This document shows positions 6,439 to 26,647 of a stretch of 64,000 bases of DNA, piece after piece (the stretch's first letter is position 1; the number at the start of each line of letters is the position of its first letter). Source of the DNA: Candidatus Magasanikiibacteriota bacterium (GTDB lineage Bacteria; Patescibacteriota; Patescibacteriia; Magasanikbacterales; GWA2-37-8); assembly GCA_041666745.1 (NCBI GenBank), contig JBAYGI010000004.1, positions 3,440 to 67,439 on the forward strand, given 5' to 3'. A program made the position numbers and the translations under genes. The notes under the pieces are model-generated. The model searched no databases. It worked only from the letters and a program-made list of their open reading frames with translations, and was not told the DNA's origin.

Positions 6439-6566
6439 TTATAGTGTAATGTTAGCCGTAATAACAATATTATCATACCACTTGTTAACATATTTGTCAA
6501 ATATTGTTGTTCACGATATTATGTGTGTACTGCACAATCATGTGTAGATCAATCAGGGAGGGTGTC

Positions 6567-7154
6567 ATGTTGGCACTCATTCGACACAGCGCCTATTATG
6601 TTGGCGCACAGCAGGCCCAAGTTGGGTGTTCGGACGAAGCATACGCATCGGCACGATATGCGTACGACATGTTCACCCAGCCACTGACCGTAAACGGCGT
6701 CAAGCTGGCCATTCAGTGGGGAGTCGGAAGGACGTATTCCGCCGTGTATGCCTCGCCGGCAATTCGCGCAATTCAGACGGCTGCGGCGGCCGTGGGCGTG
6801 GAGGAAACGAGCGTAATCGTAGATCCGCACTTGTTCTACACTCCGGGTTGTGGTGCGCGTGAGAAGGCGATGAAAGCCCTCTTCATGCGTCAGGGGTACA
6901 ACCCCCCGAGCGCATGGTACTTGGATCAAAATCAGGATGACGTACGGGAGTTCATGGCGGCAGTGGACGATCTCACCATGCTCGTCATCCAGTTGTCTGT
7001 GCGCGACGAGCAGATCCTAGCTGTCTCACATTCTGTCTTTTTGGGGGCTGTTTGTGCGAAACTGACGAACGCCCCAAAAGACTGTCTCAACAAGACGTTC
7101 GGTGTTTGTGAGGGGTTCCTTGCAGATAACGGCGTCTTCAAGGGCTATGTCTAG
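6567..7154 (+). CDS. histidine phosphatase (PGAM-like) family protein encoded in a high-GC island
   Basis: ATG at 6567 preceded by GGGAGGG SD. N-terminal LIRHSAYY (RH catalytic motif) and C-terminal AVSHSVF (SH motif), spaced as in the histidine phosphatase superfamily. About 55-60% GC versus the AT-rich host. The motifs are degenerate, so this is a tentative call. Confidence 0.4.
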   Translation: MLALIRHSAYYVGAQQAQVGCSDEAYASARYAYDMFTQPLTVNGVKLAIQWGVGRTYSAVYASPAIRAIQTAAAAVGVEETSVIVDPHLFYTPGCGAREKAMKALFMRQGYNPPSAWYLDQNQDDVREFMAAVDDLTMLVIQLSVRDEQILAVSHSVFLGAVCAKLTNAPKDCLNKTFGVCEGFLADNGVFKGYV

Positions 7155-7163
7155 GAGGTAAAT

Positions 7164-7199
7164 GGGGGGGGGTGATCAACCATGTGATTACCCCCCCCC
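7164..7199. repeat. G9-N18-C9 homopolymer-flanked hairpin
   Basis: GGGGGGGGG TGATCAACCATGTGATTA CCCCCCCCC read directly, at the right edge of the high-GC island. A second G9 run is at 806-814. Confidence 0.9.
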
Positions 7200-7224
7200 A
7201 GCCTATTCCTTTATTAAAATATTT

Positions 7225-8259
7225 ATGTTGCGAGAAATTAAAAATAAAAAAATTTTAAAAATAAATTGGGAACATATATTTACAAGAAACGCGCCACTTT
7301 TAATGGTTGATTTTCATCGACAGGCGTTTTTTTATGCTACACATAAATGGTTGTCAGACGCAGTGCTGTTTATAAAATATGAGTCAGACAAACAGGGCAA
7401 TATGAGACTGCATTATGAGGCCGGTTGGCGAAAAAGAATTAAACAACAAATAATTAAAACAAATAATTTAGAAAGAGAAAGAATTATAAATGATATTTTT
7501 AGTTGTTTGGACAAAGCAAGACTCAATTTAATTGACACAATACAGACAAATCAAAAATCGGCAAAAGTAGGAATTTTTATTAAGAAATGCACTGATCAAA
7601 TAATTGAATATAATGCGGCCTATTTAATTATTTTTATTTATTTTAATATACTATACGAGGTTGACAAAAAATTATTTTTGAAATACAAAAAATCCATTGA
7701 AACAGCAAGAAATGCACGAGCGTTATTTAAAGATGTCGAAGCATTTTTTGTTTCTTTTTTTAAAGATAATAATTATAGCAATCCAGACGTTGTACTTTGG
7801 TTGCTGTGCGACGAAGTTATGCGACTGCTGACCGGAAGTATTAAATTGGATATTGATATGCTTACAAAAAGACGAAGCAAATATTGTATGATTTGTTCTA
7901 AACACAAGATTCACCACTTTGAATATGGAAAAAACTTAGAACTTATAGGAGAGGCGACGTATAAAAATGGCGTAGTATACGGTTTTGTGAAGAAAATATT
8001 ATCTTTGGAAGACTTGAATAAAATTAATCACCCAGACGATATAGTGGTGTCTTATATGACTAGCACGTGGCATTTTCCAGTATTAAATAAAGCTAAAGCA
8101 ATATTAACCGAAGAAGGCGGAATTTTAAGTCATGCAGCAATTATTAGTAGAGAGCTAAAAATACCTTGCCTAATTAATGTTAAAGAAATTATTAAACACA
8201 CCGAAGATGGTGACTATGTTAAGATTGATACAGAAAATGAGACCGTTGAAATTTTTTAA
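7225..8259 (+). CDS. PEP-utilising enzyme mobile (swivel phosphohistidine) domain protein
   Basis: C-terminal ILTEEGGILSHAAIISRELKIPCLINV matches the PEP-utilisers mobile domain of PpsA/PPDK/rifampin phosphotransferase. N-terminal ~270 aa are unrecognised. The ATG at 7225 is preferred over the ATG at 7162, which lies inside the poly-G hairpin. Confidence 0.55.
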   Translation: MLREIKNKKILKINWEHIFTRNAPLLMVDFHRQAFFYATHKWLSDAVLFIKYESDKQGNMRLHYEAGWRKRIKQQIIKTNNLERERIINDIFSCLDKARLNLIDTIQTNQKSAKVGIFIKKCTDQIIEYNAAYLIIFIYFNILYEVDKKLFLKYKKSIETARNARALFKDVEAFFVSFFKDNNYSNPDVVLWLLCDEVMRLLTGSIKLDIDMLTKRRSKYCMICSKHKIHHFEYGKNLELIGEATYKNGVVYGFVKKILSLEDLNKINHPDDIVVSYMTSTWHFPVLNKAKAILTEEGGILSHAAIISRELKIPCLINVKEIIKHTEDGDYVKIDTENETVEIF

Positions 8260-8276
8260 AGCCCGACTTTTTATAA

Positions 8277-8816
8277 TTATTTCCCGCTATGAAATTTTTT
8301 GTCTTCCGAAGATAGTTCGATAATTACTTCGCGTATTTTATCCGGACGGTGGACGTTGTGGATGATAAATTTTGGAATTGGACCGGCGGTTTGAAGATAA
8401 ACATCGCCGTAATTAAAAATGGTTGGAAAGAAGCCGTGCACTTCCGAAGAAACATCTTGAATCTGATAGAGATCTACCTCAGCCACAGTGCGGGCAAACA
8501 ATGAAATTTGACGAATGTCCACCAAGCGATCGTTGGTAATAATCCAAGCGTCCAAATAAAATTCTACAAAAAAAGAATAGAAAAATAAAAATGTTGATAA
8601 ATAATAAGCACTGGCAAAAAGTATTATGAGCGGAAAGGTAACCGGGTTTTGCATGGTATTTACAAAGGCGGTAGAAAATAGCCAATACACAACTATCGGT
8701 ATTAACAGTATGATTATAAAAATCATCAGGTATGGAAAAAAGGTGATCCCATGTCGTCTTAATGTATATATTATTTTTTCGTAACTTTTAATTTTTACTA
8801 CAGAATCTAAGCTCAT
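8277..8816 (-). CDS. membrane protein with bacterial PH (bPH_2/YdbT-like) domain
   Basis: Two N-terminal TM helices followed by a ~100-aa soluble domain, the architecture of bPH_2 proteins. Confidence 0.4.
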   Translation of the reverse strand: MSLDSVVKIKSYEKIIYTLRRHGITFFPYLMIFIIILLIPIVVYWLFSTAFVNTMQNPVTFPLIILFASAYYLSTFLFFYSFFVEFYLDAWIITNDRLVDIRQISLFARTVAEVDLYQIQDVSSEVHGFFPTIFNYGDVYLQTAGPIPKFIIHNVHRPDKIREVIIELSSEDKKFHSGK

Positions 8817-8819
8817 ATT

Positions 8820-9125
8820 CTAAAAATTAGAAGGATTTAAAATGTTGGAAATCCAATTGTTATTCCAAAGAGTCAGTGGTTGTGTCCAGTCGGTTCCGCT
8901 TAGGAAAACAAAGGTAAAATACAAAGTGGTGATGGCCAGAACAATCACGAGGAAGGTAATCAAAAAACTTATCACAGTTAATGCGCCGTTGCGAAATAAA
9001 TGTGAAAGGTTTACGTAAGAAAAAAGAAATATTACCGCCAAATAAGCCAGATAAATAAAGAGAATAATATACAGTGGAATTGTTACCATAAAATTATAAT
9101 AATGTTTGATTTTTAATTTGTTCAA
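8820..9125 (-). CDS. small integral membrane protein (3 TM)
   Basis: 101-aa hydrophobic ORF. The true start may be the internal Met (MVTIPLY), which would remove the overlap with ruvB. Confidence 0.3.
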   Translation of the reverse strand: MNKLKIKHYYNFMVTIPLYIILFIYLAYLAVIFLFSYVNLSHLFRNGALTVISFLITFLVIVLAITTLYFTFVFLSGTDWTQPLTLWNNNWISNILNPSNF

Positions 9126-10125
9126 AACCCAAATGCGCGTAAGCGGCCGGCGTGGCTTTGCGACCGCGCGGAGTGCGTTCTAAAAATCCGATTTGTAATA
9201 AAAATGGTTCATAAATATCTTCGATAGTTTCCATTTCTTCAGCCACTGCCGCGGCCAAAGTGTTTAATCCGACTGGACCGCCATTGAATTTTTCAATCAT
9301 GGTAGTGAGCAACAAGCGGTCGATTTCATCCAACCCAAATTCATCTATCGCGAGCATTGCCATCGTGTCACTAACAATTTTTTTATCTATTGATTCCTGA
9401 TTTTTTACTTGAGCAAAATCTCGAGCGCGTTTTAATAAACGATTGGCAATACGTGGAGTGCGACGAGCGCGTTGGGCAATTAATTTTGAGCCGTCAGGTT
9501 CTAATTTTGTTTTTAATAAAACCGCGTTGCGATTTACAATAGTTTCGATATCGCTGTGTTCGTAAAAATTTAGATGAAAAACATGTCCAAAGCGATCACG
9601 TAGTGGTCCCGGTAGTAAACTCATTTTGGTAGTAGCGCCAATCAGAGTAAATTTTTCAAGTGGCATACGAAGAGTGCGCGCGGCCGGTCCTTGGCCGATA
9701 ATAATATCGAGCGCGTAATCTTCCAAAGCCGGGTAGAGTACTTCGGCGATAGTTTTGTTGATGCGGTGAATTTCGTCAATAAATAAAATATCACCACGTT
9801 GTAAATTGGAAAGAATCGCGGCGAGGTCACCAACTTTTTCCAAAATCGGTCCGGAAGTTACTTTGATATTGCCACCCATTTCTCTGGCGATGATATGGGC
9901 GAGGGTGGTTTTGCCCAATCCGGGATTGCCATACAACAAAATATGTTCCAAAACATCATTGCGTGCTTTGGCGGCGGAAATGGAGACGTCAAGATTTTTT
10001 TTAATTTGTGTTTGACCGACAAAATCCGTTAAAAGTTCCGGTCGCAAAGTAACTTCGAGCACTCTTTCCTCTCCGTCACTTTCTGAAGCCACTAATCTGT
10101 TTTCTGTTTGATTTTCTTCTATCAT
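9094..10125 (-). CDS. ruvB: Holliday junction branch-migration ATPase RuvB
   Basis: Walker A GNPGLGKTTLAHIIA, RuvB sensor motifs and a winged-helix C-terminus. Start set at MIEENQ (10125); the upstream 62 codons of the raw ORF are a non-homologous extension. Confidence 0.92.
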   Translation of the reverse strand: MIEENQTENRLVASESDGEERVLEVTLRPELLTDFVGQTQIKKNLDVSISAAKARNDVLEHILLYGNPGLGKTTLAHIIAREMGGNIKVTSGPILEKVGDLAAILSNLQRGDILFIDEIHRINKTIAEVLYPALEDYALDIIIGQGPAARTLRMPLEKFTLIGATTKMSLLPGPLRDRFGHVFHLNFYEHSDIETIVNRNAVLLKTKLEPDGSKLIAQRARRTPRIANRLLKRARDFAQVKNQESIDKKIVSDTMAMLAIDEFGLDEIDRLLLTTMIEKFNGGPVGLNTLAAAVAEEMETIEDIYEPFLLQIGFLERTPRGRKATPAAYAHLGFEQIKNQTLL

Positions 10126-10165
10126 AGTGCTATTATTATACTTAATAGCTAACATAAAGTCCAAT

Positions 10166-10636
10166 ATGTCTGAGTTTGAAACACAAAATAGTGAATGGCG
10201 TAGGCGCAATGCGTCTGAGAGTCGCGAAACACAGGTGGAAAATAAGGAAAAACAACCTGATGAACAGGAAAAAAAGGCGGCCGCGCGAGAGCGTGCGGAA
10301 GTGGTCAGCAAAGAAGTTCAGAGCACTCAAAAACAGATGCAAAACATCATGGCCAACATGCAACAGGTGGTAAAAGCCGTGCAGGCCATCCGCACCCAAC
10401 TGCAATTGTCAGATGATGGGTCGATTCCGTCTGTTCAAAGAGATGAAAAAAATATTGAAATTTTGAAAAGAAAACTGGAAAACCTGCGTGGTGAGTTGGG
10501 TGATTTGCGAGTGGCGCTGATTGTTGAGTTAAAAAAGGAGATTGTGGATAATAATAAAAATTTAACCGATCAAGAGGTTGAAAATGAAGCTCAAAAACAG
10601 GCTGACCAACTGTTTTCTCAATTGGGATTGAAATAA
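10166..10636 (+). CDS. hypothetical coiled-coil protein
   Basis: 156 aa, E/K/Q-rich heptad-like sequence. Start at MSEFETQ. Divergent from ruvB. Confidence 0.4.
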   Translation: MSEFETQNSEWRRRNASESRETQVENKEKQPDEQEKKAAARERAEVVSKEVQSTQKQMQNIMANMQQVVKAVQAIRTQLQLSDDGSIPSVQRDEKNIEILKRKLENLRGELGDLRVALIVELKKEIVDNNKNLTDQEVENEAQKQADQLFSQLGLK

Positions 10637-10676
10637 AATCGCCATACAGGTGTATGGTAGGTTAATGCTTTGTGGA

Positions 10677-10706
10677 TAACTCGTGAATACACGAGTTTTT
10701 TGTTTA
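10677..10706 (+). terminator. intrinsic terminator
   Basis: ACTCGTG aataC ACGAGT followed by TTTTTTG. Confidence 0.5.
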
Positions 10707-10719
10707 GTGTTAGCCTAGT

Positions 10720-10746
10720 TTGGCAGGCATTTTATGTTGTGGTATA
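10720..10746 (+). promoter_or_regulatory. sigma70-like promoter upstream of nrdJ
   Basis: TTGGCA, 17-nt spacer, extended -10 TGgTATAAT. Confidence 0.5.
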
Positions 10747-10767
10747 ATATGTTGGCTAATTAAAGTA

Positions 10768-10803
10768 ATACTATATATTGTGTTGAAAAATAAATTTCAA
10801 CAC
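10768..10803 (+). promoter_or_regulatory. NrdR-box-like palindrome (ATACTATATATTGTGT) overlapping a 9-bp-stem hairpin (GTGTTGAAA/TTTCAACAC) in the nrdJ 5' leader
   Basis: Matches the NrdR consensus acaCwAtATaTwGtgt at 14 of 16 positions. The inverted repeat was read directly from the sequence. Confidence 0.4.
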
Positions 10804-10848
10804 AAGCAGTAGTAATAAGCGACATAATGAAAATTAACTATTTTTTAT

Positions 10849-13800: not shown

Positions 13801-14331
13801 ATGTATCGCGAGGGGGCGGCGTTTAGAAGTTTGTTAAATTTATTTGCTATTTCTATTTCTACCGGTTTGCAATATGGTATTCCACTTGAAGAATATGTAG
13901 ATAAATTTACCTTCACTCGTTTTGAACCGAGCGGTATGACCGACCATCCAAATATTCGCAACTGTACTTCTATTATTGATTTTGTTTTCCGAGTATTGGG
14001 TATGGAATATTTGGGAAGAACAGATTTTGTACAAGTAAAACCAACCGGTATTCAAAAAAATCGCGCGCAACAATTGGATAAAATGTTTACTGAAATACAG
14101 GGACAAAAATCTATGACTTTTAAGGAGAGCGAAGCTGATGAAGTGGAAAAACAAAAAATAGTTTTAAAAGTAGATGAGGAAAAAGATCCATTTGTGATGT
14201 CGGCGGCCGACCAGATGTTGGCCAATATGATGGGCGACGCCCCACCATGTTCGACTTGCGGGCACATGACTATTCGTAATGGCAGTTGTTACAAATGTTT
14301 GAACTGTGGAAGTACTACCGGGTGTAGTTAA
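10849..14331 (+). CDS. nrdJ: class II adenosylcobalamin-dependent ribonucleotide reductase
   Basis: 1160 aa with the RNR barrel motifs (e.g. NPCSEYMFLDDTACNLASINL) and a C-terminal Cys-rich tail CSTCGHMTIRNGSCYKCLNCG. Has an internal K/E-rich low-complexity insertion. No intein signature. Confidence 0.92.
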   Translation: MQTATATKTFRLDKDFKYPENAMHFTRHYTKDDISPFDMFEYEMRSSVIREPSGKLIFEMNDVEVPKQWSQVATDILAQKYFRKAGVPQYDDNGLPKLNTDGTPVLGSEKSVKQVAHRLAGTWRYWGEKYGYFAGAKDAQVFYEELVYMIINQMVAPNSPQWFNTGLYWAYGINGPAQGHHYVDPDTGVLTRAIDSYSHPQPHACFIQSVKDDLVNEGGIMDLWVREARLFKYGSGTGTNFSSLRGASEKLSGGGQSSGLMSWLRIGDRAAGAIKSGGTTRRAAKMCVLNIDHPDIEEFVNWKVREEDKVAALIAAGYEGGYEGEAYLTISGQNSNNTVRITHDFMEAMVKDNGWELHWRTDGRSCKKMKARDLWDQIAYAAWRCADPGLQFDTTINDWHTCLASGRINASNPCSEYMFLDDTACNLASINLAHYYDPETSTFDIAGFKYTTRAWTVVLEISILMAQFPSAEIAQNSYDFRTLGLGYANIGSLLMTAGVAYDSPEALAFAGAVTALMTAESYSASAEMASYLGTFNKYNENRENMLRVMRNHRRAVFNAHEDEYENLAVKPVGIDPQFAPAYLLVAARESWNRTLEMGEKYGFRNAQTTLLAPTGTIGLLMDCATTGVEPDFALVKFKKLAGGGYFKIVNESVPVAMKTLGYAENEVSDIVDYLKGRATLKGSPVINHESLMLKGLTQEELDKIEKSLAGAFELQFALNAWTLGEDTLKRLGFSSEQFLDTNFNFLKALGFSDDEIEKANEYVCGAMAIEGAPYLKTEHYKVFDTANKNGKKGKRFIHYLGHIRMMAAVQPFLSGAISKTINMPNEATLEDVKIAYMASWKLGLKANAIYRDGCKMSQPLASKSDSKKEDKVVEEKIVELVKEIVEVKMENKQEEKSEEKTIKKFTLTSQEQTVVNQVVDENQAQISYAHDGTNKGTKIYIHGEQRKMPYKRSGITIKAKVAGQKIFLRTGEYPDGRLGEVFIDMYREGAAFRSLLNLFAISISTGLQYGIPLEEYVDKFTFTRFEPSGMTDHPNIRNCTSIIDFVFRVLGMEYLGRTDFVQVKPTGIQKNRAQQLDKMFTEIQGQKSMTFKESEADEVEKQKIVLKVDEEKDPFVMSAADQMLANMMGDAPPCSTCGHMTIRNGSCYKCLNCGSTTGCS

Positions 14332-14356
14332 AAGTATAAGGCATGCTTGTAGTGGT

Positions 14357-14385
14357 GAACCCCGTCTTGATGACGGGGTTTTGGT
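14357..14385 (+). terminator. intrinsic terminator after nrdJ
   Basis: AACCCCGTC ttgatg GACGGGGTT followed by TTGGTTT. Confidence 0.55.
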
Positions 14386-14496
14386 TTCAAAAAACCACCT
14401 GTCGCCAATAAATTCAAATTTTTAAATTCATTGGCGAATGCAGGTGGTGATGAGACCTCCCGCATTCGGTTGCGGGAGAAAAAGAGCGGGGTGGTG

Positions 14497-14895
14497 TTAG
14501 ACCAGAACGAACGGGTGGATGTCCTGGTCATTCTCGTTGAATGCCTCGTTGGCATAATAGACGAGAACGGAACCGGGCGCCAGTACGAAGGCGTGTGCAG
14601 TGCCAGGCTCGACCATCACGTGGAAGGGGGCGGAGATGGCGGTGTGTTGGACGTCGAGGACGAACATCTTGGTGTCGGCATGAAGGAACAACCCGTTTCC
14701 ATGCTTGAGATCAAACGTCTCGGTCGTCCTCTCGTGGAAGTGGTTTCCGAGCGGAAACGCACTTTTCACCACCAGCACCTTGACTGAGAAGCCGACTTCT
14801 GGGCAATTTAGTTCGAAAATGGCTCGTCGACCATCTTCGTGCACCTTGGTAAATCCACGTGCGAGTATTGCCCTCACTTGGTCTTCTACATTCAT
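14497..14895 (-). CDS. cupin-fold protein, WxcM/FdtA-like sugar ketoisomerase/epimerase family (high-GC island)
   Basis: 132 aa with a GNHFHE...H cupin metal motif and a C-terminal acidic tail like FdtA/QdtA. About 55% GC. Other ORFs overlap on both strands, as expected by chance in GC-rich DNA. Confidence 0.4.
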   Translation of the reverse strand: MNVEDQVRAILARGFTKVHEDGRRAIFELNCPEVGFSVKVLVVKSAFPLGNHFHERTTETFDLKHGNGLFLHADTKMFVLDVQHTAISAPFHVMVEPGTAHAFVLAPGSVLVYYANEAFNENDQDIHPFVLV

Positions 14896-15018
14896 GACGT
14901 ATCATCCAAAGCCCAATGTAGCGGGCAGGATGTTTTTTAAATACCATATTTTGACCAATTTGTCAATATTGGAAGGATTGTGTAGAATACCAATTATGAA
15001 ATTTGTAATAAATATTTT

Positions 15019-15558
15019 ATGACAAAAATATATACCAAAACCGGTGACAGTGGCGAGACAACTTTGCTTGGCGGTGAACGTGTTACCAAGGATTGTATTA
15101 CTCTACAAGTGGTGGGAGAGATTGACGAACTCAATTCCAAGTTGGGTGAGGTGGTCGCGCATTTGTGGGAGGAAGAGCCGGTTGATTTTTTAAAAAAAAT
15201 TCAAGGTGATCTTTTTAAGGCGGGGGCTGAAGTGGCCAGTTTGCAAACGGAATTTAATTCTAAAATAATAATAATCGGCCAAGAAGAAATTGAGGAGTTG
15301 GAAAATAATATCGATGCCTATGCCGAACAGCTACCTGAATTAACAAACTTTATTTTACCCGGTGGAAATTTATCGGCCGCGCATTTGCATCACGCTCGTA
15401 CTATTTGTCGTCGGGTGGAGCGAGTGTTGGTAATGTTGGGAAAAGAAAAAAAAGTGCGTCCGGAATTGTATAAATATTTTAATAGATTGAGTGATTATTT
15501 TTTTATTGCGGCGAGGTGGATAAACTTTAATGATGGGGTGGAGGAACATAAAGTTTAA
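15019..15558 (+). CDS. PduO-type ATP:cob(I)alamin adenosyltransferase
   Basis: N-terminus MTKIYTKTGDSGETTLLGGERVTKD...VGEIDELNS is the hallmark of the MMAB/PduO family. 179 aa. Confidence 0.85.
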   Translation: MTKIYTKTGDSGETTLLGGERVTKDCITLQVVGEIDELNSKLGEVVAHLWEEEPVDFLKKIQGDLFKAGAEVASLQTEFNSKIIIIGQEEIEELENNIDAYAEQLPELTNFILPGGNLSAAHLHHARTICRRVERVLVMLGKEKKVRPELYKYFNRLSDYFFIAARWINFNDGVEEHKV

Positions 15559-15597
15559 GCGTGTATTAGCAAATTTTTTATTCACATATTTGCAGGC

Positions 15598-15626
15598 TTG
15601 ACATTGTGCACTTTTAAAATTACAAT
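15598..15626 (+). promoter_or_regulatory. sigma70-like promoter (TTGACA, 17 nt, TACAAT) heading a ~255-nt untranslated leader
   Basis: Read directly from the sequence. The next start codon is at 15882. Confidence 0.35.
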
Positions 15627-15805
15627 GGACAAGACTTTTCTCTACAGAGTTGCGACAGATTTGATGTTTCAATCGGATCGGATTCTGAAAACATTCTCTC
15701 TCCATTTCCTTTATAATTTATTATCTTGGAATGGCGTTTTCTAGATTTGATTCGCAAATTAATACATGCAGATCTGCTCGCAGCTCTGTGGAGAAAAAAT
15801 CAATT

Positions 15806-15830
15806 GCCCAGGTGGTGTAATGGTAGCCAC
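15806..15830 (+). other. tRNA 5'-half-like fragment (acceptor plus D-arm) resembling the downstream tRNA-Leu
   Basis: GCCCAGGTGGTGTAATGGTAGCCAC compared with the tRNA-Leu 5' half GCTCAGGTGGCGGAATGGTCTACGC, about 18 of 25 identical. Confidence 0.4.
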
Positions 15831-15881
15831 GTGATAAGGTATATTGTAATGCGTATGCTATTATGATATACTTTATTTATT

Positions 15882-16352
15882 ATGAGACCAAAAAAATGGA
15901 CAGAGCAACAGCTTAGAGAAATTGTTCCAACAGTTACTAGTGTGCGTCAAGTTTTAAGAGAACTTGGGCTTAAAGAAGCTGGTGGAAATTATGCGCAGAT
16001 AAAAAAATTTTTAAAAGAATATAAAATAGATATCTTGCATTTTACTGGTGTTGGTTGGAATATAGGAATGAAAATGCAGATTAACACAGCTAAACCGTTA
16101 AAAGAAATACTGATTAAAAATAGTAGTTATCAAAGTTTTAAGTTAAAAAAAAGATTGTTTGCAGAGAAAATAAAAAAACCATATTGTGAATTGTGTGGAT
16201 GGGCAAAGTTGTCGATAGACGGTCGAGTACCTTTAGAGTTAGATCATATAAATGGTGATCACTCAGATAATAGGATTGACAATTTACGAATTTTATGTCC
16301 TAATTGTCACAGTTTACAGTTAACTCATAGAGGTAGAAACAGAAAAAAATAA
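15882..16352 (+). CDS. free-standing HNH endonuclease
   Basis: C-terminal ELDHINGDHSDNRIDNLRILCPNCHS is a canonical HNH motif with zinc-finger Cys/His. The stop codon lies 5 nt before tRNA-Leu. Confidence 0.8.
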   Translation: MRPKKWTEQQLREIVPTVTSVRQVLRELGLKEAGGNYAQIKKFLKEYKIDILHFTGVGWNIGMKMQINTAKPLKEILIKNSSYQSFKLKKRLFAEKIKKPYCELCGWAKLSIDGRVPLELDHINGDHSDNRIDNLRILCPNCHSLQLTHRGRNRKK

Positions 16353-16357
16353 AATAT

Positions 16358-16437
16358 GCTCAGGTGGCGGAATGGTCTACGCAAGAGACTTAAAATCTCT
16401 CGCCGCAAGGCTTGCGGGTTCGAGTCCCGCCCTGAGC
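16358..16437 (+). tRNA. tRNA-Leu (anticodon TAA), class II with long variable arm
   Basis: Acceptor GCTCAGG/CCTGAGC, anticodon stem AGAGA/TCTCT, loop CTTAAAA, long variable arm CGCCGCAAGGCTTGCGGG, T-loop GTTCGAGTC. CCA is not encoded. Confidence 0.85.
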
Positions 16438-16530: not shown

Positions 16531-17400
16531 ATGCCTCCAGATAAATATTCCGCTGTTTGGGTTTCACACACCTCTATTTCTGATTTTTTGAAATGTCCGC
16601 GGGCTTATTTTTTGAAAAATGTTTATCGCGATCCAGCGACCAAACACAAAATAAAAATAATGTCGCCGACGTTGGCTTTGGGGCAGTGTGTGCATGAGGT
16701 TTTGGAATCATTGTCGCAGTTGCCTCGTGGGGGTCGGTTTAGTGAGCCGTTGCCAAATAAATTTGAAAAAGTTTGGGAAAAAATAAAAGGAGAAAAAGGC
16801 GGGTTTCCAAACGATGACACTGAATATCAATATAAAAAACGTGGCTTGGACATGTTGGCGCGCGTGTATAATCATCCGGGACCAATAAACAATCTGTCAG
16901 TAAAAATTCAAATGGATTTGCCGTATTATTGGTTGTCCGAAGAAGATAATATAATTTTGTGCGGTAAAGTCGATTGGCTGGAATATTTTCCAGACACAGA
17001 TAGTGTACACATCATAGATTTCAAGACCGGTAAAATTCAGGAAGAAGAAAGTTCGTTGCAGTTGCCGATATATAGTTTGTTGGTTTCCAAATGTCAAAAA
17101 AGAAAAGCCACCAAGGCCAGTTATTGGTATTTGGCGGAAAATGATAACCTAACTGAAAAACCATTACCGGATTTGGAAGAATCGGAGAAAAAAATATTGG
17201 AGATCGCCAGACAGATGAAAGTGGCTCGACAGATTAACCGTTTCAAATGCCCGAATGGCGAAGATGGATGTTTTGCTTGCAAGCCGTTTGAATCCATACT
17301 AAATAAGACGGCCAAATTGGTCGGCCAAGATGAATATGGCGCCGATGTCTACATTATTGATAGTATTGAGAAAGAAAACAGGGAAGGGGAGATTTTGTAA
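16531..17400 (+). CDS. PD-(D/E)XK nuclease superfamily protein (Cas4/RecB-like, Fe-S Cys motifs)
   Basis: IIDFKTGK (D-x-K), QLPIYSL (QxxxY), N-terminal Cys (LKCPRAYF) and C-terminal CPNGEDGCFAC cluster, as in Cas4/AddB nuclease domains. No cas genes nearby. Confidence 0.6.
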   Translation: MPPDKYSAVWVSHTSISDFLKCPRAYFLKNVYRDPATKHKIKIMSPTLALGQCVHEVLESLSQLPRGGRFSEPLPNKFEKVWEKIKGEKGGFPNDDTEYQYKKRGLDMLARVYNHPGPINNLSVKIQMDLPYYWLSEEDNIILCGKVDWLEYFPDTDSVHIIDFKTGKIQEEESSLQLPIYSLLVSKCQKRKATKASYWYLAENDNLTEKPLPDLEESEKKILEIARQMKVARQINRFKCPNGEDGCFACKPFESILNKTAKLVGQDEYGADVYIIDSIEKENREGEIL

Positions 17401-17504
17401 ATAAAAAATATGTTTAAAATCGGCTGTCTTGCGTTGACAAGCCGGTTTTTTGTGATATAGAAATTATGCATGCCCGCGACGTTGGGCTGTGAGGAAAGAG
17501 TCAA

Positions 17505-17858
17505 ATGAGGAGCTTCTGGGAAAAAAACAAAGTACACGTGGTGATATACATGTTCATCGTCGTTAGTGTCGCCCTGTTCGTGTGGCATGGTGAGTTTTTG
17601 GATGGTCTTCGACTCGAACGCGAGAAGATCGTCGTAGAACAAGCCTTGGCCAAGCAGGCACGAGCTAAGATGGTCGCCAAGGAGGAGGTGATCGACTCGC
17701 TTCAGTATTTCCGTGATCCGCGAGATCCGCTTGACCCGAGATGTTTCTTGTCGGTTGGGTTGGGGGCTGCGACCGGTGTGACACTTCTCGTGTCCGTTGA
17801 CTGCGCTTCGATCCCGCCAGATCTCCTGCGAGATGTGTTTTCACCCAAGCAGGAGTAG
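17505..17858 (+). CDS. hypothetical protein (one TM) in a high-GC island
   Basis: 117 aa, GAGGAAAGAG SD-like sequence upstream, about 57% GC. No recognised motif. ORF length alone is weak evidence in GC-rich DNA. Confidence 0.3.
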   Translation: MRSFWEKNKVHVVIYMFIVVSVALFVWHGEFLDGLRLEREKIVVEQALAKQARAKMVAKEEVIDSLQYFRDPRDPLDPRCFLSVGLGAATGVTLLVSVDCASIPPDLLRDVFSPKQE

Positions 17859-17861
17859 GGC

Positions 17862-18059
17862 GTGTGGGGCAACTGTTCTTTCAACTATGTTTTTGAATGC
17901 CCATTCCCGCCAATAACTTGGCGAGATGGTATCCAAAAGCATGAGCTGGAGAGGGTGGGAGTTTCGGCTCTGCGCCTCTCCAAACCCTCTGTCGGTTTTG
18001 CCGGCACTGATGAGTCCGACGACTGCTCAACCAAGGACGAAAGGGAAAACTGTGGATAA
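17862..18059 (+). CDS. hypothetical small protein in a high-GC island
   Basis: 65 aa, GTG start 4 nt after the upstream stop, AGGAG upstream. Weak evidence. Confidence 0.2.
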   Translation: MWGNCSFNYVFECPFPPITWRDGIQKHELERVGVSALRLSKPSVGFAGTDESDDCSTKDERENCG

Positions 18060-18153
18060 CTATTGGTTAGTTTTTACAAAATAAGGCTCTTTTTACTTTA
18101 TATTAGCCAAAAACAGGCAAAAAACTTGACAATTTTATATAAACTAGCTTCAT

Positions 18154-18182
18154 TTGACAAAACTTCATTTTTGTATTATTAT
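18154..18182 (+). promoter_or_regulatory. sigma70-like promoter for rpoB-rpoC (TTGACA, 17 nt, TATTAT) with a ~250-nt leader
   Basis: Read directly from the sequence. Confidence 0.4.
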
Positions 18183-18430
18183 TTATCCGCTTTCGTGGAA
18201 AGACCACGTATTCAAAAAAAACGCTTAAGTAAGCAAAAAAGTGGCATTTACCGGTTTGGTAAAAAAGCTGCTTGCAAGGTAATTCAATAAAAAAACCTTC
18301 ATGTTAACCTTGCCGTTTTCCGCTAAAATATAACAAAAAGCCATAAAAGCCTATTTTTTTGGCACTTTTTTTGTTTAAAAATTTTCAACTCTCAATTTTT
18401 TATAAAAAATTTATTTTAAAACTTCACCTT

Positions 18431-21874: not shown

Positions 21875-21885
21875 TTTTTTCTTCT

Positions 21886-24800
21886 ATGAACCATGATTCA
21901 AATAAAAATACAAACTTTGACGCGATTCGTTTGCGTCTGGCCTCTCCTGAAATTATTCGCGGATGGTCGTTTGGTGAAGTAAACAAACCGGAGACGATCA
22001 ACTATCGTACTCAAAAACCGGAAAAGGGTGGTTTGTTCGCTGAAGAAATTTTTGGGCCGACCAAAGATTGGGAATGTTATTGTGGAAAGTATAAAAAAAT
22101 TCGTTACAAAGGAATTGTTTGTGACAAGTGTGGAGTAGAAGTTACTACCTCATTGGTTCGTCGTGAACGTATGGGTCATATCGAATTGGCCGCTCCGGTA
22201 GCTCACATTTGGTTCTTGCGATCCGTACCTTCCAAAGTCGGTTTGATTTTGGATGTACCGGTTCAAGCTTTGGAAAAGGTAATTTATTTTGCCGCATTTA
22301 TTATTTCTCATGTTGATGAAGAAGGTAAACGCAAAGCTAGTGATCAGATGCGTCAAGAATACAAAACCAAAAAGAAACAAATTGAACATGAATCTGAAAC
22401 AGAAATTAAAAAAGCCAATGATCAAAAATTGGGCGCTGAATTTTTGGAAAAGGTTCAACATGAAACTGATCGCAAGCAACAAGCTTTGGAACAAGATTTT
22501 GTGGCAGCCGATAAAGAATTAAAAGAATTACAAGTTTTGAAAATTTTGTCTGAAAATCGTTATCAAGAATTGTCTTTGCGTTTTGGACATTTGTTTGAAG
22601 CGGGCATAGGCGCTGAAGCGGTTTACAATTTGCTCGAAAGAATAAATATTCCAGATACTATCAAACAGATTGTCGATGAGCAAGTTACTTCCAAGGGCGC
22701 GAAATTGGAACGTTTGATTCGCCGTCATAAATTACTCAACAGTTTGATGGTGAACAAGATTCGTCCAGAGTGGACAATCATGAAATGTATCCCGGTTATT
22801 CCTCCGGATCTTCGCCCGATGGTGGCGCTTGATGGTGGTCGTTTTGCTACTTCCGATTTGAATGATTTGTATCGTCGCGTGATCAATCGCAACAATCGTT
22901 TACGTCGTTTGTTGGATCTGGATGCTCCGGAAGTTATTTGTCGCAATGAAAAACGCATGTTGCAAGAAGCAGTTGATGCTTTGATTGACAATAATGCTCG
23001 TCATGCCAAAACCGTCTTGGCCGCTACCGGTCAAAAACGTCAGTTGCGTTCCTTGGCTGATATTTTAAAAGGTAAACAAGGTCGTTTCCGTCAGAATTTG
23101 CTCGGTAAACGCGTGGACTACTCCGGTCGTTCCGTTATCGTCGTGGGTCCTCAACTCAATATCGATGAATGTGGTTTGCCAAAACGCATGGCACTTGAAC
23201 TTTTCAAACCGTTTATCATGGGTGAAATTATTAAACGTGAATTGGCTCACAATGTTCGTAGTGCCAGTAGATATATCGAAGCTGAACATGATGAAGTTTG
23301 GGATATTTTGGAAGAACTCACTCAAAATACTCGCGTGATGTTGAATCGCGCTCCTACTTTGCATCGTCTGGGTATTCAAGCTTTCCACCCGCGTTTGGTA
23401 GAAGGTAAAGCTATTCAATTGCACCCATTGTGTTGTACTGCTTTCAATGCGGACTTTGACGGCGATCAGATGGCCGTGCATCTACCTTTGACTGCGGAAG
23501 CTCGTTGGGAGGCGGAAAATTTGATGGCTTCAGAAAAGAACTTGCTCAAACCAGCTACCGGTCAACCGGTAATTACTCCTAAACAGGATATTGCTTTGGG
23601 TTGTTTTTATCTTACAAATTATCACAGTAGTGATACCGCTCCGGTAAAAAGATTTTTTTCTTCCATTAAAGATGCCAAATTGGCTTACAAATGTCGTGTA
23701 GTTACTTTGCACGAAAGAATCAAAGTGCGTTTTAGTGAAAGTGAATTAAATAAATTTCCGGAAGGAACCAATAAATTGATAGAAACCTCCTTGGGACGTA
23801 TTTTGTTCAACGAAATTGTGCCGGATAAAATCGCTTATTACAATGAAACTATTACGGTAAAAAAATTAGCCGAAATTATTCGTTTTTGTTTGGAATTTTA
23901 TGATCAAGAAGCGACTGCTCGCTTTTTGGATGAGTTGAAAAATTTGGGTTATCGTTATGTTACAAAATCCGGTTACTCTTTGGGCATTGCCGATTTTCCA
24001 AAGATTGAAGAAAAAACTTCTTTAACTTTGATTGCCGATAAACAAGTAGCTGAAGTGGAAGAACAATATCAGGAAGGTTTGTTGACTCAAGCTGAACGCC
24101 ACGCCAAGATTTTGGAAATTTGGACTTCTACCAAGGACAAAATCGTTGCCAACAATCAAAAGAACTTGGATAAAAATGGTCCAGTATACGCTATGATCGA
24201 ATCCGGTGCTCGCGGTACTTGGGGTCAGCTCGGTCAGGTTATCGGTATGAAAGGTTTGGTGGTATCTCCATCCGGTGATATTATCGAATTGCCGGTAAAA
24301 GGTAACTTCAAAGAAGGTTTTGATGTGCTCGAATACTTTATTTCTTCACACGGTACTCGTAAAGGTTTGTCTGATACCGCTTTGCGTACCGCCAATGCCG
24401 GTTATTTGACTCGTCGTTTGGTAGATGTGTCTCAAGATGTGGTAATTTTGGAAGAAGATTGTGGAGATACCACCGGTGAGGTGTTTACCGTGGCTCAATC
24501 CAAAGAAATGGGTGAGAAGTTGTCTGATCGTGTTTGGGGTCGCTATGTAATTTCTGAAGTTAAAGTTGGTGATAAAGTTTTTGTAAAAGCCGGTGAAGTT
24601 ATCGATGATAAAACCGCTCGTGCGATTGATGAGGCCGGAGTGAATGAAGTTCATGTACACAGTGTTTTGCAATGTAAATTACCAAAAGGTTTCTGTCGCA
24701 AATGTTATGGCTATGATTTGGCTCACAACAAACCGGTAGAATTTGGTACAGCTGTCGGTATTATCGCCGCTCAATCTTTGGGTGAGCCTGGTACTCAGCT

Positions 24801-25764
24801 CACGTTGCGTACTTTCCACGCCGGTGGTGTGGCTGGTGGCGATATCACTCAAGGTTTGCCTCGTGTAGAAGAATTGTTCGAATGTCGTCCTCCAAAACGT
24901 AAAGCAGTTTTGTCTGAAGTAGATGGTAAAGTGGAAATCGAAGATGCGGACGGCAAGATTGTAACTTCGCCAACCGGTAAAAAGATTTTTGAAGGCCGTC
25001 GTGGACAAAAAATCCTCAAAGTTCATTTTGAAGGCATGGAAGAAACCAAAATCAAATTTGATAGTGGCGATGAAGTGATGGTAAAAGACGGAGATGAGGT
25101 TGAGCCGGGTCAAACTATCTTGGTGCGCGGTGCTTCCGGTGAAGAAGTGGTTGCCAAATATCAAACCAAAGTTAAATTGGGTAAAAATAATTTGCTGTTA
25201 ACTTATGTTGGTCCAAAGGTACGTGAGTATATCATACCGCTTGGGTATAAGTTGTATGTAAAAGAGGGTGAACAAGTAGAAAAAGGACAACAAATGACTG
25301 ACGGTAGTATCAACTTGCAAGAATTGTTTGAGCTCAAAGGACGTCCGGCGGTTCAACGTTATATTTTGCAAGAAGTACAAAATATTTATTCTTCTCAAGG
25401 TCAGAAAGTAAACGACAAACACGTGGAATTGCTTATCTGCCAAATGTTTAGTCGTGTACAAATAGAAGAAGCCGGTGATACCGAATTGTTACCTGGTGAA
25501 GTGGTGGAAAAAGCACAATTTATGTATGCCAACCAGATGGCCAAAAAGAATGGTGGAAAATTGTCCACTTCCAAAGAATTATTGTTTGGTGTATCGCGCG
25601 TGGCACTATCCACTCAAAGTTTCTTATCGGCTGCTTCCTTCCAAGAAACCGCCAAAGTATTGATCAATACCGCATTAACCGGCAAGATTGACTATCTCGA
25701 AGGTTTGAAAGAAAATGTGATTATTGGGCGATTGATACCGGCTGGTACTGGGTTTAAACAGTAA
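21886..25764 (+). CDS. rpoC: DNA-directed RNA polymerase subunit beta'
   Basis: Zn-finger CYCGKYKK...CDKCGVEV, catalytic NADFDGD, bridge helix and trigger loop regions. Confidence 0.97.
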   Translation: MNHDSNKNTNFDAIRLRLASPEIIRGWSFGEVNKPETINYRTQKPEKGGLFAEEIFGPTKDWECYCGKYKKIRYKGIVCDKCGVEVTTSLVRRERMGHIELAAPVAHIWFLRSVPSKVGLILDVPVQALEKVIYFAAFIISHVDEEGKRKASDQMRQEYKTKKKQIEHESETEIKKANDQKLGAEFLEKVQHETDRKQQALEQDFVAADKELKELQVLKILSENRYQELSLRFGHLFEAGIGAEAVYNLLERINIPDTIKQIVDEQVTSKGAKLERLIRRHKLLNSLMVNKIRPEWTIMKCIPVIPPDLRPMVALDGGRFATSDLNDLYRRVINRNNRLRRLLDLDAPEVICRNEKRMLQEAVDALIDNNARHAKTVLAATGQKRQLRSLADILKGKQGRFRQNLLGKRVDYSGRSVIVVGPQLNIDECGLPKRMALELFKPFIMGEIIKRELAHNVRSASRYIEAEHDEVWDILEELTQNTRVMLNRAPTLHRLGIQAFHPRLVEGKAIQLHPLCCTAFNADFDGDQMAVHLPLTAEARWEAENLMASEKNLLKPATGQPVITPKQDIALGCFYLTNYHSSDTAPVKRFFSSIKDAKLAYKCRVVTLHERIKVRFSESELNKFPEGTNKLIETSLGRILFNEIVPDKIAYYNETITVKKLAEIIRFCLEFYDQEATARFLDELKNLGYRYVTKSGYSLGIADFPKIEEKTSLTLIADKQVAEVEEQYQEGLLTQAERHAKILEIWTSTKDKIVANNQKNLDKNGPVYAMIESGARGTWGQLGQVIGMKGLVVSPSGDIIELPVKGNFKEGFDVLEYFISSHGTRKGLSDTALRTANAGYLTRRLVDVSQDVVILEEDCGDTTGEVFTVAQSKEMGEKLSDRVWGRYVISEVKVGDKVFVKAGEVIDDKTARAIDEAGVNEVHVHSVLQCKLPKGFCRKCYGYDLAHNKPVEFGTAVGIIAAQSLGEPGTQLTLRTFHAGGVAGGDITQGLPRVEELFECRPPKRKAVLSEVDGKVEIEDADGKIVTSPTGKKIFEGRRGQKILKVHFEGMEETKIKFDSGDEVMVKDGDEVEPGQTILVRGASGEEVVAKYQTKVKLGKNNLLLTYVGPKVREYIIPLGYKLYVKEGEQVEKGQQMTDGSINLQELFELKGRPAVQRYILQEVQNIYSSQGQKVNDKHVELLICQMFSRVQIEEAGDTELLPGEVVEKAQFMYANQMAKKNGGKLSTSKELLFGVSRVALSTQSFLSAASFQETAKVLINTALTGKIDYLEGLKENVIIGRLIPAGTGFKQ

Positions 25765-25782
25765 AAAAGTTTAAAAAAAGAG

Positions 25783-25812
25783 TGTTTAACAGCACTCTTT
25801 TTTTGTTGACTT
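25783..25812 (+). terminator. intrinsic terminator after rpoC
   Basis: AAGAGTG tttaacag CACTCTT followed by TTTTTTG. Confidence 0.55.
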
Positions 25813-25866
25813 TTTGTTTTGTTGTGCTATGATTTTGGTGGTTCGTTCTTTCGTTTAGGAGGGAAC

Positions 25867-26547
25867 ATGGGAAAGAGAAAAGGTTGGTCCTGGGGCAAGT
25901 TGTCACTAGGACGTGAAGTGGTTCGTGCTCTGTTTCACTGGCTCTGTGGTATGGCAATGTGGTTGATAATGCACCCATTGCCGATACCGGACGTAGCTGT
26001 CTGGATCTGCGGAGTCGTAATTTTCGCCACCTTCATGGTGTTTCGGCACGTGCGTGGTTCGCGCGCGGTTCGTTTCGCCAGTTTCAACCACGTCATCGAT
26101 CGATGGTTGGCGAGGGATGTCGAAAAAGGACAAATGACGGCTGCATGGCCAACGTACGTTGGTTGCCTATTCGCATGGGTAATCATCTGTGCGTGTAATA
26201 CCCGTTGGATCGGAGCGCTCACCGCCTTGCTGTTTGGCATGGTGGATCCGCTCGCTCGATTGGGTATGAAGTGGCCAATAACCAAGCGGTTCAAGAACGA
26301 GAAGTCGTGGGGTGGGCTCCTATTTGGCTTTCTGGGTGGTTTGCTGGCGGTCGGTCTGATCGCCATCGTTTGCCACTGCGGAGTGCCACTGGTCGCCGCA
26401 CCAAGGTTCGAAATCCTCGTTATCGTGTACGCAGTCGGAGTCGTGTCTGCGTCACTCTTTGAGCTTCGCGGAGGGAGATGGGACAATTTCATCATACCTG
26501 CCGGGACGACCGTCGCAATGACGGTTGCATACTATGCTCTCCTCTAA
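25867..26547 (+). CDS. integral membrane protein, CTP-dependent polyprenol/diacylglycerol kinase-like (DUF92/SEC59/CdsA-like motif), high-GC island
   Basis: AGGAGG SD 5 nt before the ATG at 25867. 5-6 TM helices. A KRFKNEKSWGGLLFGFLGG motif resembles the CTP-transferase family signature. About 57% GC. Weak family call. Confidence 0.35.
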   Translation: MGKRKGWSWGKLSLGREVVRALFHWLCGMAMWLIMHPLPIPDVAVWICGVVIFATFMVFRHVRGSRAVRFASFNHVIDRWLARDVEKGQMTAAWPTYVGCLFAWVIICACNTRWIGALTALLFGMVDPLARLGMKWPITKRFKNEKSWGGLLFGFLGGLLAVGLIAIVCHCGVPLVAAPRFEILVIVYAVGVVSASLFELRGGRWDNFIIPAGTTVAMTVAYYALL

Positions 26548-26560
26548 TCCCAGGAAAATT

Positions 26561-26596
26561 CCGCCGACCCCCGAGGGTCGGCGTTGCGTTTTTTGG
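26561..26596 (+). terminator. intrinsic terminator
   Basis: GCCGACCC ccga GGGTCGGC followed by GTTGCGTTTTTTGG. Confidence 0.6.
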
Positions 26597-26647
26597 TTAA
26601 ATACGGTAGATTATAGGTAGTCAATTTCAATTTTTATAGAAAATTAT

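Follow-up and report, generated by a model that had tools for sequence, protein, structure and literature searches.

The stretch analysed here, referred to throughout as the window, comprises 64,000 nucleotides of a metagenome-assembled genome (MAG) of Candidatus Magasanikbacteria, a lineage of the Patescibacteria or candidate phyla radiation (CPR), with an overall GC content of 39.1%. It carries four short GC-rich islands, numbered 1 to 4, which are probably horizontally acquired, self-contained single-gene expression cassettes with a moron-like anatomy. According to this interpretation, single-gene cassettes would have been inserted in intergenic slots just downstream of core genes, each with a ribosome-binding site or 5' leader, one open reading frame (ORF) and a hairpin. 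Their sources would have roughly 55% GC, as estimated with the codon-position equations of Lawrence & Ochman 1997, and would use Shine-Dalgarno (SD)-dependent initiation. Insertion would have proceeded by illegitimate or double-strand-break-repair recombination and not through a dedicated element, and the family represented by island 4 would circulate among AT-rich, SD-less Patescibacteria as a leader-ORF-terminator unit.

The islands stand out from the rest of the window by composition. In 300-nt windows across the whole stretch, GC has a mean of 0.391, a standard deviation of 0.054 and a 99th percentile of 0.557. A value of 0.50 or more is reached in six segments only, four of which are the islands:

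6469-7241: GC segment of island 1, peak 0.60
14311-14941: GC segment of island 2, peak 0.58
17451-18094: GC segment of island 3, peak 0.57
25803-26661: GC segment of island 4, peak 0.58
31221-31589: non-island GC segment, a two-tRNA locus
37262-37586: non-island GC segment, a stretch within gyrA

Each island measures 0.5-0.8 kb and reaches 57-60% GC, against 39% for the window. The GC content at third codon positions (GC3) is 0.55-0.66 in the island ORFs versus 0.35 +/- 0.05 in native genes (n = 46), the three codon positions of the islands (GC1/GC2/GC3) having about 0.60/0.39/0.64. Codon usage correlates between one island and another with r = 0.24-0.43, and between islands and native genes with r = -0.18 to 0.17. 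The existence of four GC-rich islands, first reported in a preliminary description made from the sequence, is borne out by these values.

The islands also differ from their surroundings in translation initiation. As had been described, native genes lack SD sequences: an SD core precedes 3 of the 46 long ORFs of the window, two of which are taken, from their upstream sequences, to be the ORFs of islands 1 and 4, and the leaders of native start codons are purely A/T. No SD core was found before any of 13 ORFs in the closest relative (L093, see below). In the GC-rich Patescibacteria relatives of the RpoB set (L010, L011, L021, L026, L029 and L039; GC 0.53-0.61), it precedes 0-20% of long ORFs. 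Since these GC-rich relatives are also mostly without SD, SD-independent initiation looks clade-wide and no by-product of AT richness. A strong SD is present in three of the four islands: GGGAGGG in island 1, GAGGAAAGAG in island 3 and AGGAGGG in island 4. The statement that all islands are SD-led is correct for these three and not for island 2, whose ORF has no clear SD; the AGGAGG quoted in support of it lies at 7154-7159 and precedes a spurious start at 7162 within the G9/C9 hairpin of island 1. In a step analysis of islands 1 and 4, GC rises at the SD and falls at the end of the 3' hairpin.

Inspection of the sequence agrees with the reported location of the islands, which are intergenic and adjoin the terminators of core genes. 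The genes upstream of them are a TrmB gene, nrdJ, a PD-(D/E)XK gene just before rpoB, and rpoC; the neighbours include nrdJ, a gene for a pduO-type adenosyltransferase, rpoB, rpoC, yebC, ruvC and ruvB. All four islands lie in 20 kb of the window, the remaining 44 kb having none, a clustering that we estimate to be statistically uncompelling by itself. The parts of the islands are given below; promoter and terminator sites are consensus matches and therefore predictions, except that the promoter-like site of island 3 was read by eye, outside the scoring of the consensus scan.

6494..6522, plus strand: predicted sigma-70-like promoter of island 1, TTGTCA-17-TATTAT, in AT-rich DNA (consensus scan)
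6556..6562, plus strand: SD of island 1, GGGAGGG; GC steps up at 6555
6567..7154, plus strand: island 1 gene, 195 amino acids (aa), divergent His_Phos_1 (GC 0.56, GC3 0.65; MFA6547801.1)
7163..7200, plus strand: 3' hairpin of island 1, G9...C9, with 16-nt arms, 94% complementary; GC steps down at 7203
14402-14437: AT-rich palindrome beside the hairpin of island 2 (repeat scan)
14458..14478, minus strand: hairpin downstream of the island 2 gene, CTCCCGCA/TGCGGGAG, read from the sequence
14497..14895, minus strand: island 2 gene, 132 aa, orphan, predicted beta-rich (GC 0.54, GC3 0.66; MFA6547807.1, WCT11_02560)
17401..18046, plus strand: whole insert of island 3, about 646 nt, from the stop codon of the PD-(D/E)XK gene to the conserved TGTGGATAAC, by comparison with the empty site of L093
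17419..17462, plus strand: AT-rich head of island 3, a terminator-like hairpin overlapping a promoter-like site, TTGACA-17-TG-n-TATAGA, read from the sequence
17491-17500, plus strand: SD of island 3, GAGGAAAGAG
17505-17858, plus strand: ORF 3a, 117 aa, orphan, with an N-terminal hydrophobic helix (GC3 0.64)
17862..18059, plus strand: ORF 3b, 65 aa, GTG start, absent from the protein collection
25772..25805, plus strand: native AT-rich rpoC terminator, immediately 5' of island 4
25806..25833, plus strand: predicted extended -10 promoter-like site of island 4, TTGACT-16-TG-c-TATGAT
25838..25866, plus strand: 5' leader of island 4, with a YTCTTT motif and the SD AGGAGGG (25857-25863)
25867..26547, plus strand: island 4 gene, 226 aa, polytopic membrane protein (GC 0.54, GC3 0.61)
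26562..26594, plus strand: GC-rich intrinsic terminator of island 4, a 9-bp stem with a TTGCGTTTTTT tail; GC steps down at 26583

The 3' hairpins of islands 1 and 2 have no clear T tract, and no 3' hairpin was found in island 3. A mechanically called ORF (7162-8259) begins inside the hairpin of island 1; the gene with a PEP-utilizer domain that follows more likely starts at ATG 7225, which is preceded by an AT leader of the native style.

Two deflationary explanations have to be considered before any biological one. Abrupt composition steps in a metagenome-assembled genome might reflect assembly chimeras or contaminant joins, as the preliminary description had proposed as its alternative, and this is now scarcely credible. 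The window differs from ENA contig ERZ27249449 (85 kb) by 1 mismatch in 20.7 kb and also matches an 83.6-kb NCBI MAG contig annotated Candidatus Magasanikbacteria. Both junctions of islands 2, 3 and 4 recur at 99.9-100% identity in short contigs from other datasets:

25738-26673 of the window: L002 (Logan SRR6484324), covering island 4 and both flanks
14208-15747 of the window: L003 (JGI 3300037810), covering island 2 and both flanks
16936-18176 of the window: L004, covering island 3 and both flanks
17181-18130 of the window: L005, covering island 3 and both flanks

Identical junctions are thus present in ERZ27249449, Logan SRR6484324, JGI 3300037810 and the NCBI MAG contig, and the junction-spanning contigs effectively refute a chimeric origin. 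Island 1 is recorded in NCBI, JGI, ENA and Logan. In addition, syntenic native genes stand on both sides of every island, and three further MAGs, assembled separately, have a member of the island-4 cassette family at the corresponding position. The other explanation starts from the fact that GC-rich intergenic blocks of AT-rich genomes are often RNA genes, in which case the blocks would be structured non-coding RNAs and their ORFs products of chance. ORF length exceeds the chance level in island 1 (reached in 1/500 shuffles) and island 4 (2/500) and does not in islands 2 (80/500) and 3 (189/500), which would suit such RNAs. Against them, three-base codon periodicity is strong in ORFs 1, 2, 3a and 4 (each 0/1000 shuffles), and islands 1 and 4 have homologs at the protein level. 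With Rfam, only tRNAs in the window reached the gathering threshold and the islands were unmatched even at E <= 0.1, and the fold of island 3 is no better than that of shuffled sequence (z = -1.2). On these last two grounds the structured-RNA alternative was rejected, and we assign it almost no probability. Within island 3, ORF 3b is probably not a gene, because its stop codon falls in conserved flanking DNA in the comparison with L093; its codon periodicity was matched by 166/1000 shuffles. The products of ORF 3a and of island 4 are recorded in the gene calls of JGI, Logan and ENA and not of NCBI, whose annotation of the MAG apparently left both genes uncalled.

Putative functions can be proposed for two of the proteins. 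That of island 1 had been described as histidine phosphatase-like, which appears broadly right: it matches Pfam His_Phos_1 with 27.8 bits (cutoff 21.7, E 2.4e-6), contains the motifs LIRHS (residues 4-8) and SHS (residues 153-155), and reaches no NCBIfam equivalog; it would be a divergent histidine phosphatase. The cupin sugar isomerase-like product attributed to island 2 could not be upheld, since its cupin matches are below threshold (TIGR04366, E 0.048, 13.5 bits with a cutoff of 42; PF14667, 21.8 bits with a cutoff of 28.7). This protein has no match among the sequences of the Protein Data Bank (PDB), and its AlphaFold2 (AF2) model is beta-rich and, with a predicted local distance difference test (pLDDT) score of 39, unusable. 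The model of the island 4 protein (pLDDT 43) is equally unusable, and the protein of the window has no match in Pfam or NCBIfam. However, the profile of its family (33 homologs) matches TmCdsA of Thermotoga (PDB 4q2e) weakly (E = 0.005), 1 of the 33 members matches PF01148 (CTP_transf_1) at 4.8e-4, and a fragment in its 90% cluster bears the JGI label 'dolichol kinase'. On this evidence of CdsA/dolichol-kinase type, the protein is tentatively assigned to the CdsA/polyprenol-kinase superfamily, and may be a lipid or polyprenol-phosphate enzyme; the earlier 'membrane kinase-like' label was therefore broadly appropriate.

For islands 3 and 4, a comparison is offered by L093 (Ga0066639_10000746), which was obtained in a metagenome scan with RpoC and is the closest relative found. 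Its RpoB and RpoC are 93% identical to those of the window, and synteny extends from the PD-(D/E)XK gene through gyrA. The gap between the PD-(D/E)XK gene and rpoB has 312 nt in L093 and 958 nt in the window, and that between rpoC and yebC 127 and 883 nt, respectively; islands 3 and 4 are absent from L093. For island 3, the alignment of the empty and filled sites defines a clean insert of about 646 nt without target duplication. Nothing occupies the rpoC-yebC slot in L046, L095, L096, L098, L103 and L113 either, and other genes fill it in L008, L099, L101 and L102. L008 (Magasanikbacteria GW2011_GWA2_37_8), from a genome scan with RpoB, is syntenic and has an RpoB identity of 81%; its slot downstream of nrdJ holds a GC-rich single ORF on the minus strand, as in island 2, with an unrelated sequence. 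Two GC-rich single-ORF islands were noticed in L008, at 5797-6466 (175 aa, minus strand, after nrdJ) and at 7857-8542 (192 aa, before the HNH gene), and neither ORF has similarity to the island proteins of the window or to any Pfam family. Conversely, the island ORFs of the window showed no similarity to the GC-rich ORFs of L008 and L090. The pduO-like gene of L008 appears disrupted (7360-7775). Sporadic SD-led, GC-rich single ORFs were also seen at other Patescibacteria loci.

The protein of island 4 belongs to a rare family. When 1.84 billion representatives were searched with a profile, only 44 relatives with conserved motifs emerged, and the genomic context was examined in nine genomes, the window included. 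The recipient genomes are AT-rich (0.36-0.42 GC), and their native starts lack SD where readable (L090, L174, L175 and L006). The family gene is richer in GC than its flanks in 9/9 genomes (GC 0.47-0.55; GC3 0.44-0.65, native GC3 being about 0.3-0.4), has a strong SD in 8/9 copies and is followed directly 3' of the stop codon by a hairpin in 9/9. In four Magasanikbacteria (the window, L090, L088/89 and L174), it occupies the slot downstream of rpoC; the RpoC proteins of the latter three are 80-82% identical to that of the window. Elsewhere, the gene is found in a recA-efp slot (L173), beside an integrase (L175) and in a multi-gene GC-rich block (L006). The four rpoC-slot copies and that of L175 have in common a terminator tail, GGCG/GGTG-YTYRYGTTT, and a YTCTTT motif lies 5-12 nt 5' of the SD in the family leaders. 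Homology of the cassette runs from the 5' untranslated region (UTR) to the terminator, while promoter-proximal DNA differs. The syntenic comparison proposed initially therefore gave two results: islands 3 and 4 are lacking in L093, and the island-4 family is present at the same slot in three other Magasanikbacteria.

The age of this family is less simple than its foreign composition would suggest. The proteins of the four syntenic copies are 37-49% identical in all pairs, whereas in the same genomes the identity of RpoC is 80-85% (92% for L090 and L088 in the C-terminal 196 residues) and that of YebC 61-70%. At four-fold sites of conserved residues, the window copy is identical to the others at 0.20-0.31, the expectation from composition being 0.25-0.27, and these sites are accordingly saturated. 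Nevertheless, four-fold-site GC is 52-65% in every rpoC-slot copy, and 20-41% in the adjacent rpoC and yebC. The earlier proposal of recently acquired foreign DNA is consequently supported in its first part, by the foreign self-contained composition and by the absence of islands 3 and 4 from L093, and 'recent' is too simple for island 4.

The leaders of this family may have a regulatory function. The YTCTTT motif is present in those of the window (25838-25866), L088, L174, L091, L092, L006 and L173. It pairs with the SD in the minimum-energy fold of 6/9 copies, the hairpin of the window having 8 bp and -9.6 kcal/mol; when leader folds were compared with those of shuffled sequences, none was individually significant (window z = -1.5). 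By occluding the SD, the YTCTTT-SD hairpin may control translation in the manner of a fourU element.

Neither a donor nor a dedicated element was found. The preliminary description proposed to find the donor lineage by BLASTP, and none can be named: among 5.8 billion proteins (word-indexed), the island 4 protein had one match, of 39%, and proteins 1 and 2 matched only themselves. Since a word-indexed search misses identities of about 40%, islands 1-3 may have undetected relatives. GC-rich Patescibacteria relatives are unlikely donors, being likewise without SD usage. The four island proteins have no close relatives in IMG/VR, in scans that detect close relatives only; PHROG and PADLOC scans gave no matches, and a profile-based locus search (alignment A5) in JGI metagenomes found nothing. 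Islands 1-4 have no common boundary motif, terminal repeat or flanking direct repeat. Transposons, insertion sequences (IS) or miniature inverted-repeat transposable elements (MITE) are not indicated, as there are no terminal inverted repeats, no duplication at the island 3 junctions, and no integrase or transposase among the annotated neighbours of the window islands. As for integrons, there are no imperfect palindromes or motifs common to the islands and no integrase among the annotated neighbours. Self-comparison of the window revealed no pair of template repeat (TR) and variable repeat (VR), as expected for a diversity-generating retroelement (DGR), although not every ORF was screened for reverse transcriptase. 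Insertion by signature-free recombination is proposed because terminal repeats, target duplications, attC-like sites and nearby recombinase genes are all lacking. A cobalamin-salvage theme (a CobC-like His_Phos protein and a CobS-like membrane protein near nrdJ and pduO) was considered and dropped: it is the His_Phos_1 protein of L006 that is CobC-like, island 1 has no detectable relationship to it (E 0.43), and the island-4 family has no CobS match in Pfam or NCBIfam.

The data establish that the islands exist, how they are composed, that their presence varies between genomes, that the island-4 cassettes are homologous and that signatures of mobile elements are absent; the direction and timing of transfer, the mode of insertion, expression and the biochemical functions are inferred from them. 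Some of the foregoing results weigh against acquisition of the cassettes by transfer. No donor emerged from the searches of 5.8 billion proteins or, with the family profile, of 1.84 billion representatives; proteins 1 and 2 have only the self-matches just mentioned and protein 3a is known solely from contigs of the same organism. The promoters and terminators are consensus matches only, and the datasets that confirm the junctions may share related samples. The comparison of empty sites covers islands 3 and 4, the island-2 slot of L008 holding different content, and as L093 is diverged from the window (rpoC four-fold-site identity of 0.50), absence from it could represent loss rather than non-gain. 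Island 4 poses a further difficulty. The foreign composition has been kept despite synonymous saturation, and one ancient acquisition would by now be expected to have ameliorated; separate recent imports into the rpoC slot would require an unexplained slot specificity and an unsampled reservoir. Furthermore, the family is a compositional outlier in all nine AT-rich genomes examined, and no native-looking copy was seen.

Two other explanations address this difficulty. The cassettes may be long-term residents, with island 4 in the rpoC slot before the divergence of Magasanikbacteria, lost in L093, L008 and others, and with GC and SD maintained, possibly because SD initiation provides a special regulated channel beside unstructured A/U-rich leaders, or because GC-rich mRNA resists AU-directed decay. 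An argument for residence is that one slot is used in the window, L090, L088/89 and L174, whose 5' leaders are homologous and whose terminator tail is conserved. Others are the order rpoC - family gene - Memo, kept in L090, L088 and L174 (with yebC next in L090 and L174), a family divergence in these three (40-49%) near that of the adjacent Memo gene (36-59%), and the four-fold GC of 0.52-0.65 despite saturation. The strong SD of 8/9 copies, the narrow band of gene GC (0.47-0.55, in recipients of 0.36-0.42) and the recurrent YTCTTT-SD pairing, which hints at translational control, point in the same direction. Nonetheless, residence is unlikely, given that the distribution is patchy (the gene is absent from L093 and from eight or more further related genomes in which the slot is readable), that the family tree is near star-like (37-49% in all pairs, YebC ranging from 61% to 84%), and that the recA-efp slot of L173, the site by the integrase of L175 and the GC-rich block of L006 are used too. 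Islands 1-3 are without any relatives and the leader hairpins are individually not significant; moreover, we know of no mechanism that keeps the GC3 of one gene about 0.3 above genome equilibrium. Rather improbably, a Patescibacteria mobile element or virus that has escaped sampling, with SD-led genes and about 50-55% GC, might repeatedly seed terminator-proximal slots with some site preference, perhaps assisted by double-strand breaks that inteins or free-standing nucleases introduce nearby. This would account for the array of L090 described below, where a DGR-type unit is bracketed by an exact 132-nt direct repeat, for the phage-type integrase near the family gene of L175, and for a homology that spans the 5'-UTR to the terminator and excludes promoter DNA. 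The HNH and PD-(D/E)XK genes between islands 2 and 3, together with the inteins in GyrA (window) and NrdJ (L008), also favour it; these nuclease genes are, however, conserved in relatives and not obviously mobile. The island proteins lack close IMG/VR relatives and PHROG or PADLOC matches, and no integrase, transposase or common boundary motif lies near the window islands, all of which argues against such an element. In general terms, it is doubtful, though worth stating, that AT-rich, SD-less Patescibacteria hold a persistent class of GC-rich, SD-led cassettes whose composition is actively maintained or continually renewed from an unsampled mobile reservoir directed at sites just behind the terminators of core genes.

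Three of the family contexts deserve a description of their own. In L090 (GCA_964535515.1, CAZHTA010000001.1), at least three GC-rich, SD-led units form an array in the rpoC slot, which shows itself to be a hot spot for the accumulation of GC-rich cassettes. A direct repeat of 132 nt, exact in both copies (8616-8747 and 10101-10232), equivalent to the 3' end of the family gene and its terminator, brackets a GC-rich insert of 1.35 kb that contains a DGR-type VR (9419-9526) and TR (9909-10016). These differ by 13 mismatches in 108 nt, 11/13 being an A of the TR that is replaced in the VR. A plus-strand ORF at about 8966-9535 has the VR at its C-terminus, the minus-strand call 'h183' being probably wrong, and a further SD-led small ORF follows the insert; no reverse transcriptase was found within the fetched locus. 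The 132-nt repeats look like a recombination or integration scar. L006 (Logan ERR15113708), the sole long family context without a CPR-like look, was considered as the 'home' genome of the family and proved to be one more recipient, AT-rich and SD-less. Five GC-rich, SD-led genes follow one another there at 3471-9496, encoding Cation_efflux, Usp, VWA (GC3 0.92), His_Phos_1 and the island-4 homolog, and the heterogeneous GC3 of the block implies several donors. The His_Phos_1 gene adjoins the island-4 homolog, recalling the pair of islands 1 and 4, and is not detectably orthologous to island 1 (E 0.43). In L175 (GCA_900089805.1), a 23S_rRNA_IVP (Avd-like) protein is encoded at 1844-2221 among type IV secretion system (T4SS)-pilin genes, about 6 kb from a distant family member and a phage-type integrase, a hint of DGR or mobile-element activity near cassettes.

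Other observations concern the surroundings of the islands. The rpoB leader (18047-18358), about 310 nt of non-coding DNA, is highly conserved with L093, far above other intergenic DNA, and carries a near-consensus promoter, TTGACA-17-TATTAT, at 18154-18182; it has no Rfam match and may be a regulatory leader. GyrA of the window (34034-37678) contains an intein (Pfam Intein_splicing). NrdJ has an intein-sized insertion in L008 (1242-5708, 1488 aa) and none in the window (1160 aa). The free-standing nuclease genes between islands 2 and 3 lie at 15882-16352 (HNH) and 16531-17400 (PD-(D/E)XK). With these inteins and nucleases, homing-type elements are abundant here in the vicinity of highly conserved genes. 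Finally, a 62-nt inverted repeat of 93.5% identity (28564-28625 and 42657-42718) occupies intergenic or gene-end positions, its second copy sitting within a 107-nt imperfect palindrome (42634-42740).

Among known systems, the cassettes most readily recall the morons of HK97/HK022-type phages, defined as additional DNA of deviant GC that separates conserved neighbours and brings expression signals of its own (PMC3594210). Islands 3 and 4 are likewise extra DNA between conserved neighbours with respect to relatives, the island GC is unlike that of surrounding genes, and each unit is a single gene with no associated recombinase. Predicted expression signals of their own are the promoter-like sites of islands 1 and 4 and the GC-rich terminator of island 4, all of them consensus matches. 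In contrast to morons, the islands reside in the core chromosome of a free-standing ultra-small bacterium, with no phage or prophage; the recipients are normally without SD, and one cassette family recurs in the same slot. Genomic islets offer a second comparison, together with the amelioration of horizontally acquired genes, a model reportedly put forward by Lawrence and Ochman. The atypical GC and codon usage, the patchy distribution and the fit to a source of about 55% GC agree with it. Unlike islets, the cassettes have 0.5-0.8 kb and one gene and are not beside tRNA genes or integrases, and the composition of the island-4 family persists despite synonymous saturation, a behaviour not predicted by the model.

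Single-ORF units with a 3' hairpin, and the array of L090 in one slot, are also reminiscent of integron cassettes or of clusters of attC sites lacking integron-integrases (CALIN). However, there is no IntI and there are no attC-like palindromes common to the units. Like intrinsic terminators, the hairpins consist of a short perfect GC stem and a U tail, SD and promoter-like sites accompany the units individually, and the cassettes of the window stand at four separate loci. Diversity-generating retroelements are common in CPR, and the GC-rich cassette of L090, with its TR/VR pair and adenine-specific differences, resembles them, unlike the window, which has no such pair and whose island proteins lack DGR features. 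In Bacteroidia, translation is SD-independent (anti-SD occlusion, rpsU/bS21), with few SD-led regulated genes. The likeness lies in native genes without SD and a tiny minority with a very strong one, and the difference in that the SD-led genes of Bacteroidia are native regulators, whereas here they are compositionally foreign accessory genes.

For the most part, the phenomenon is ordinary gene transfer in an unusual setting, small horizontally acquired cassettes being already known. The exception is the island-4 family, which retains a foreign composition and turns up repeatedly at one slot, and this our preferred reading, acquisition as single-gene cassettes, leaves unexplained. The CPR or Patescibacteria have tiny, streamlined genomes in which gene gain is little understood. 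On the preferred reading, the window displays such gain at its finest grain, one gene with its putative expression signals behind the terminators of conserved genes, and the combination of GC3 and SD presence offers a simple way to spot these gains in the clade. If the composition of island 4 truly persists for long, it would challenge the use of amelioration as a clock for dating transfers, and would point to a dual translation-initiation regime or to a hidden mobile gene pool in CPR.

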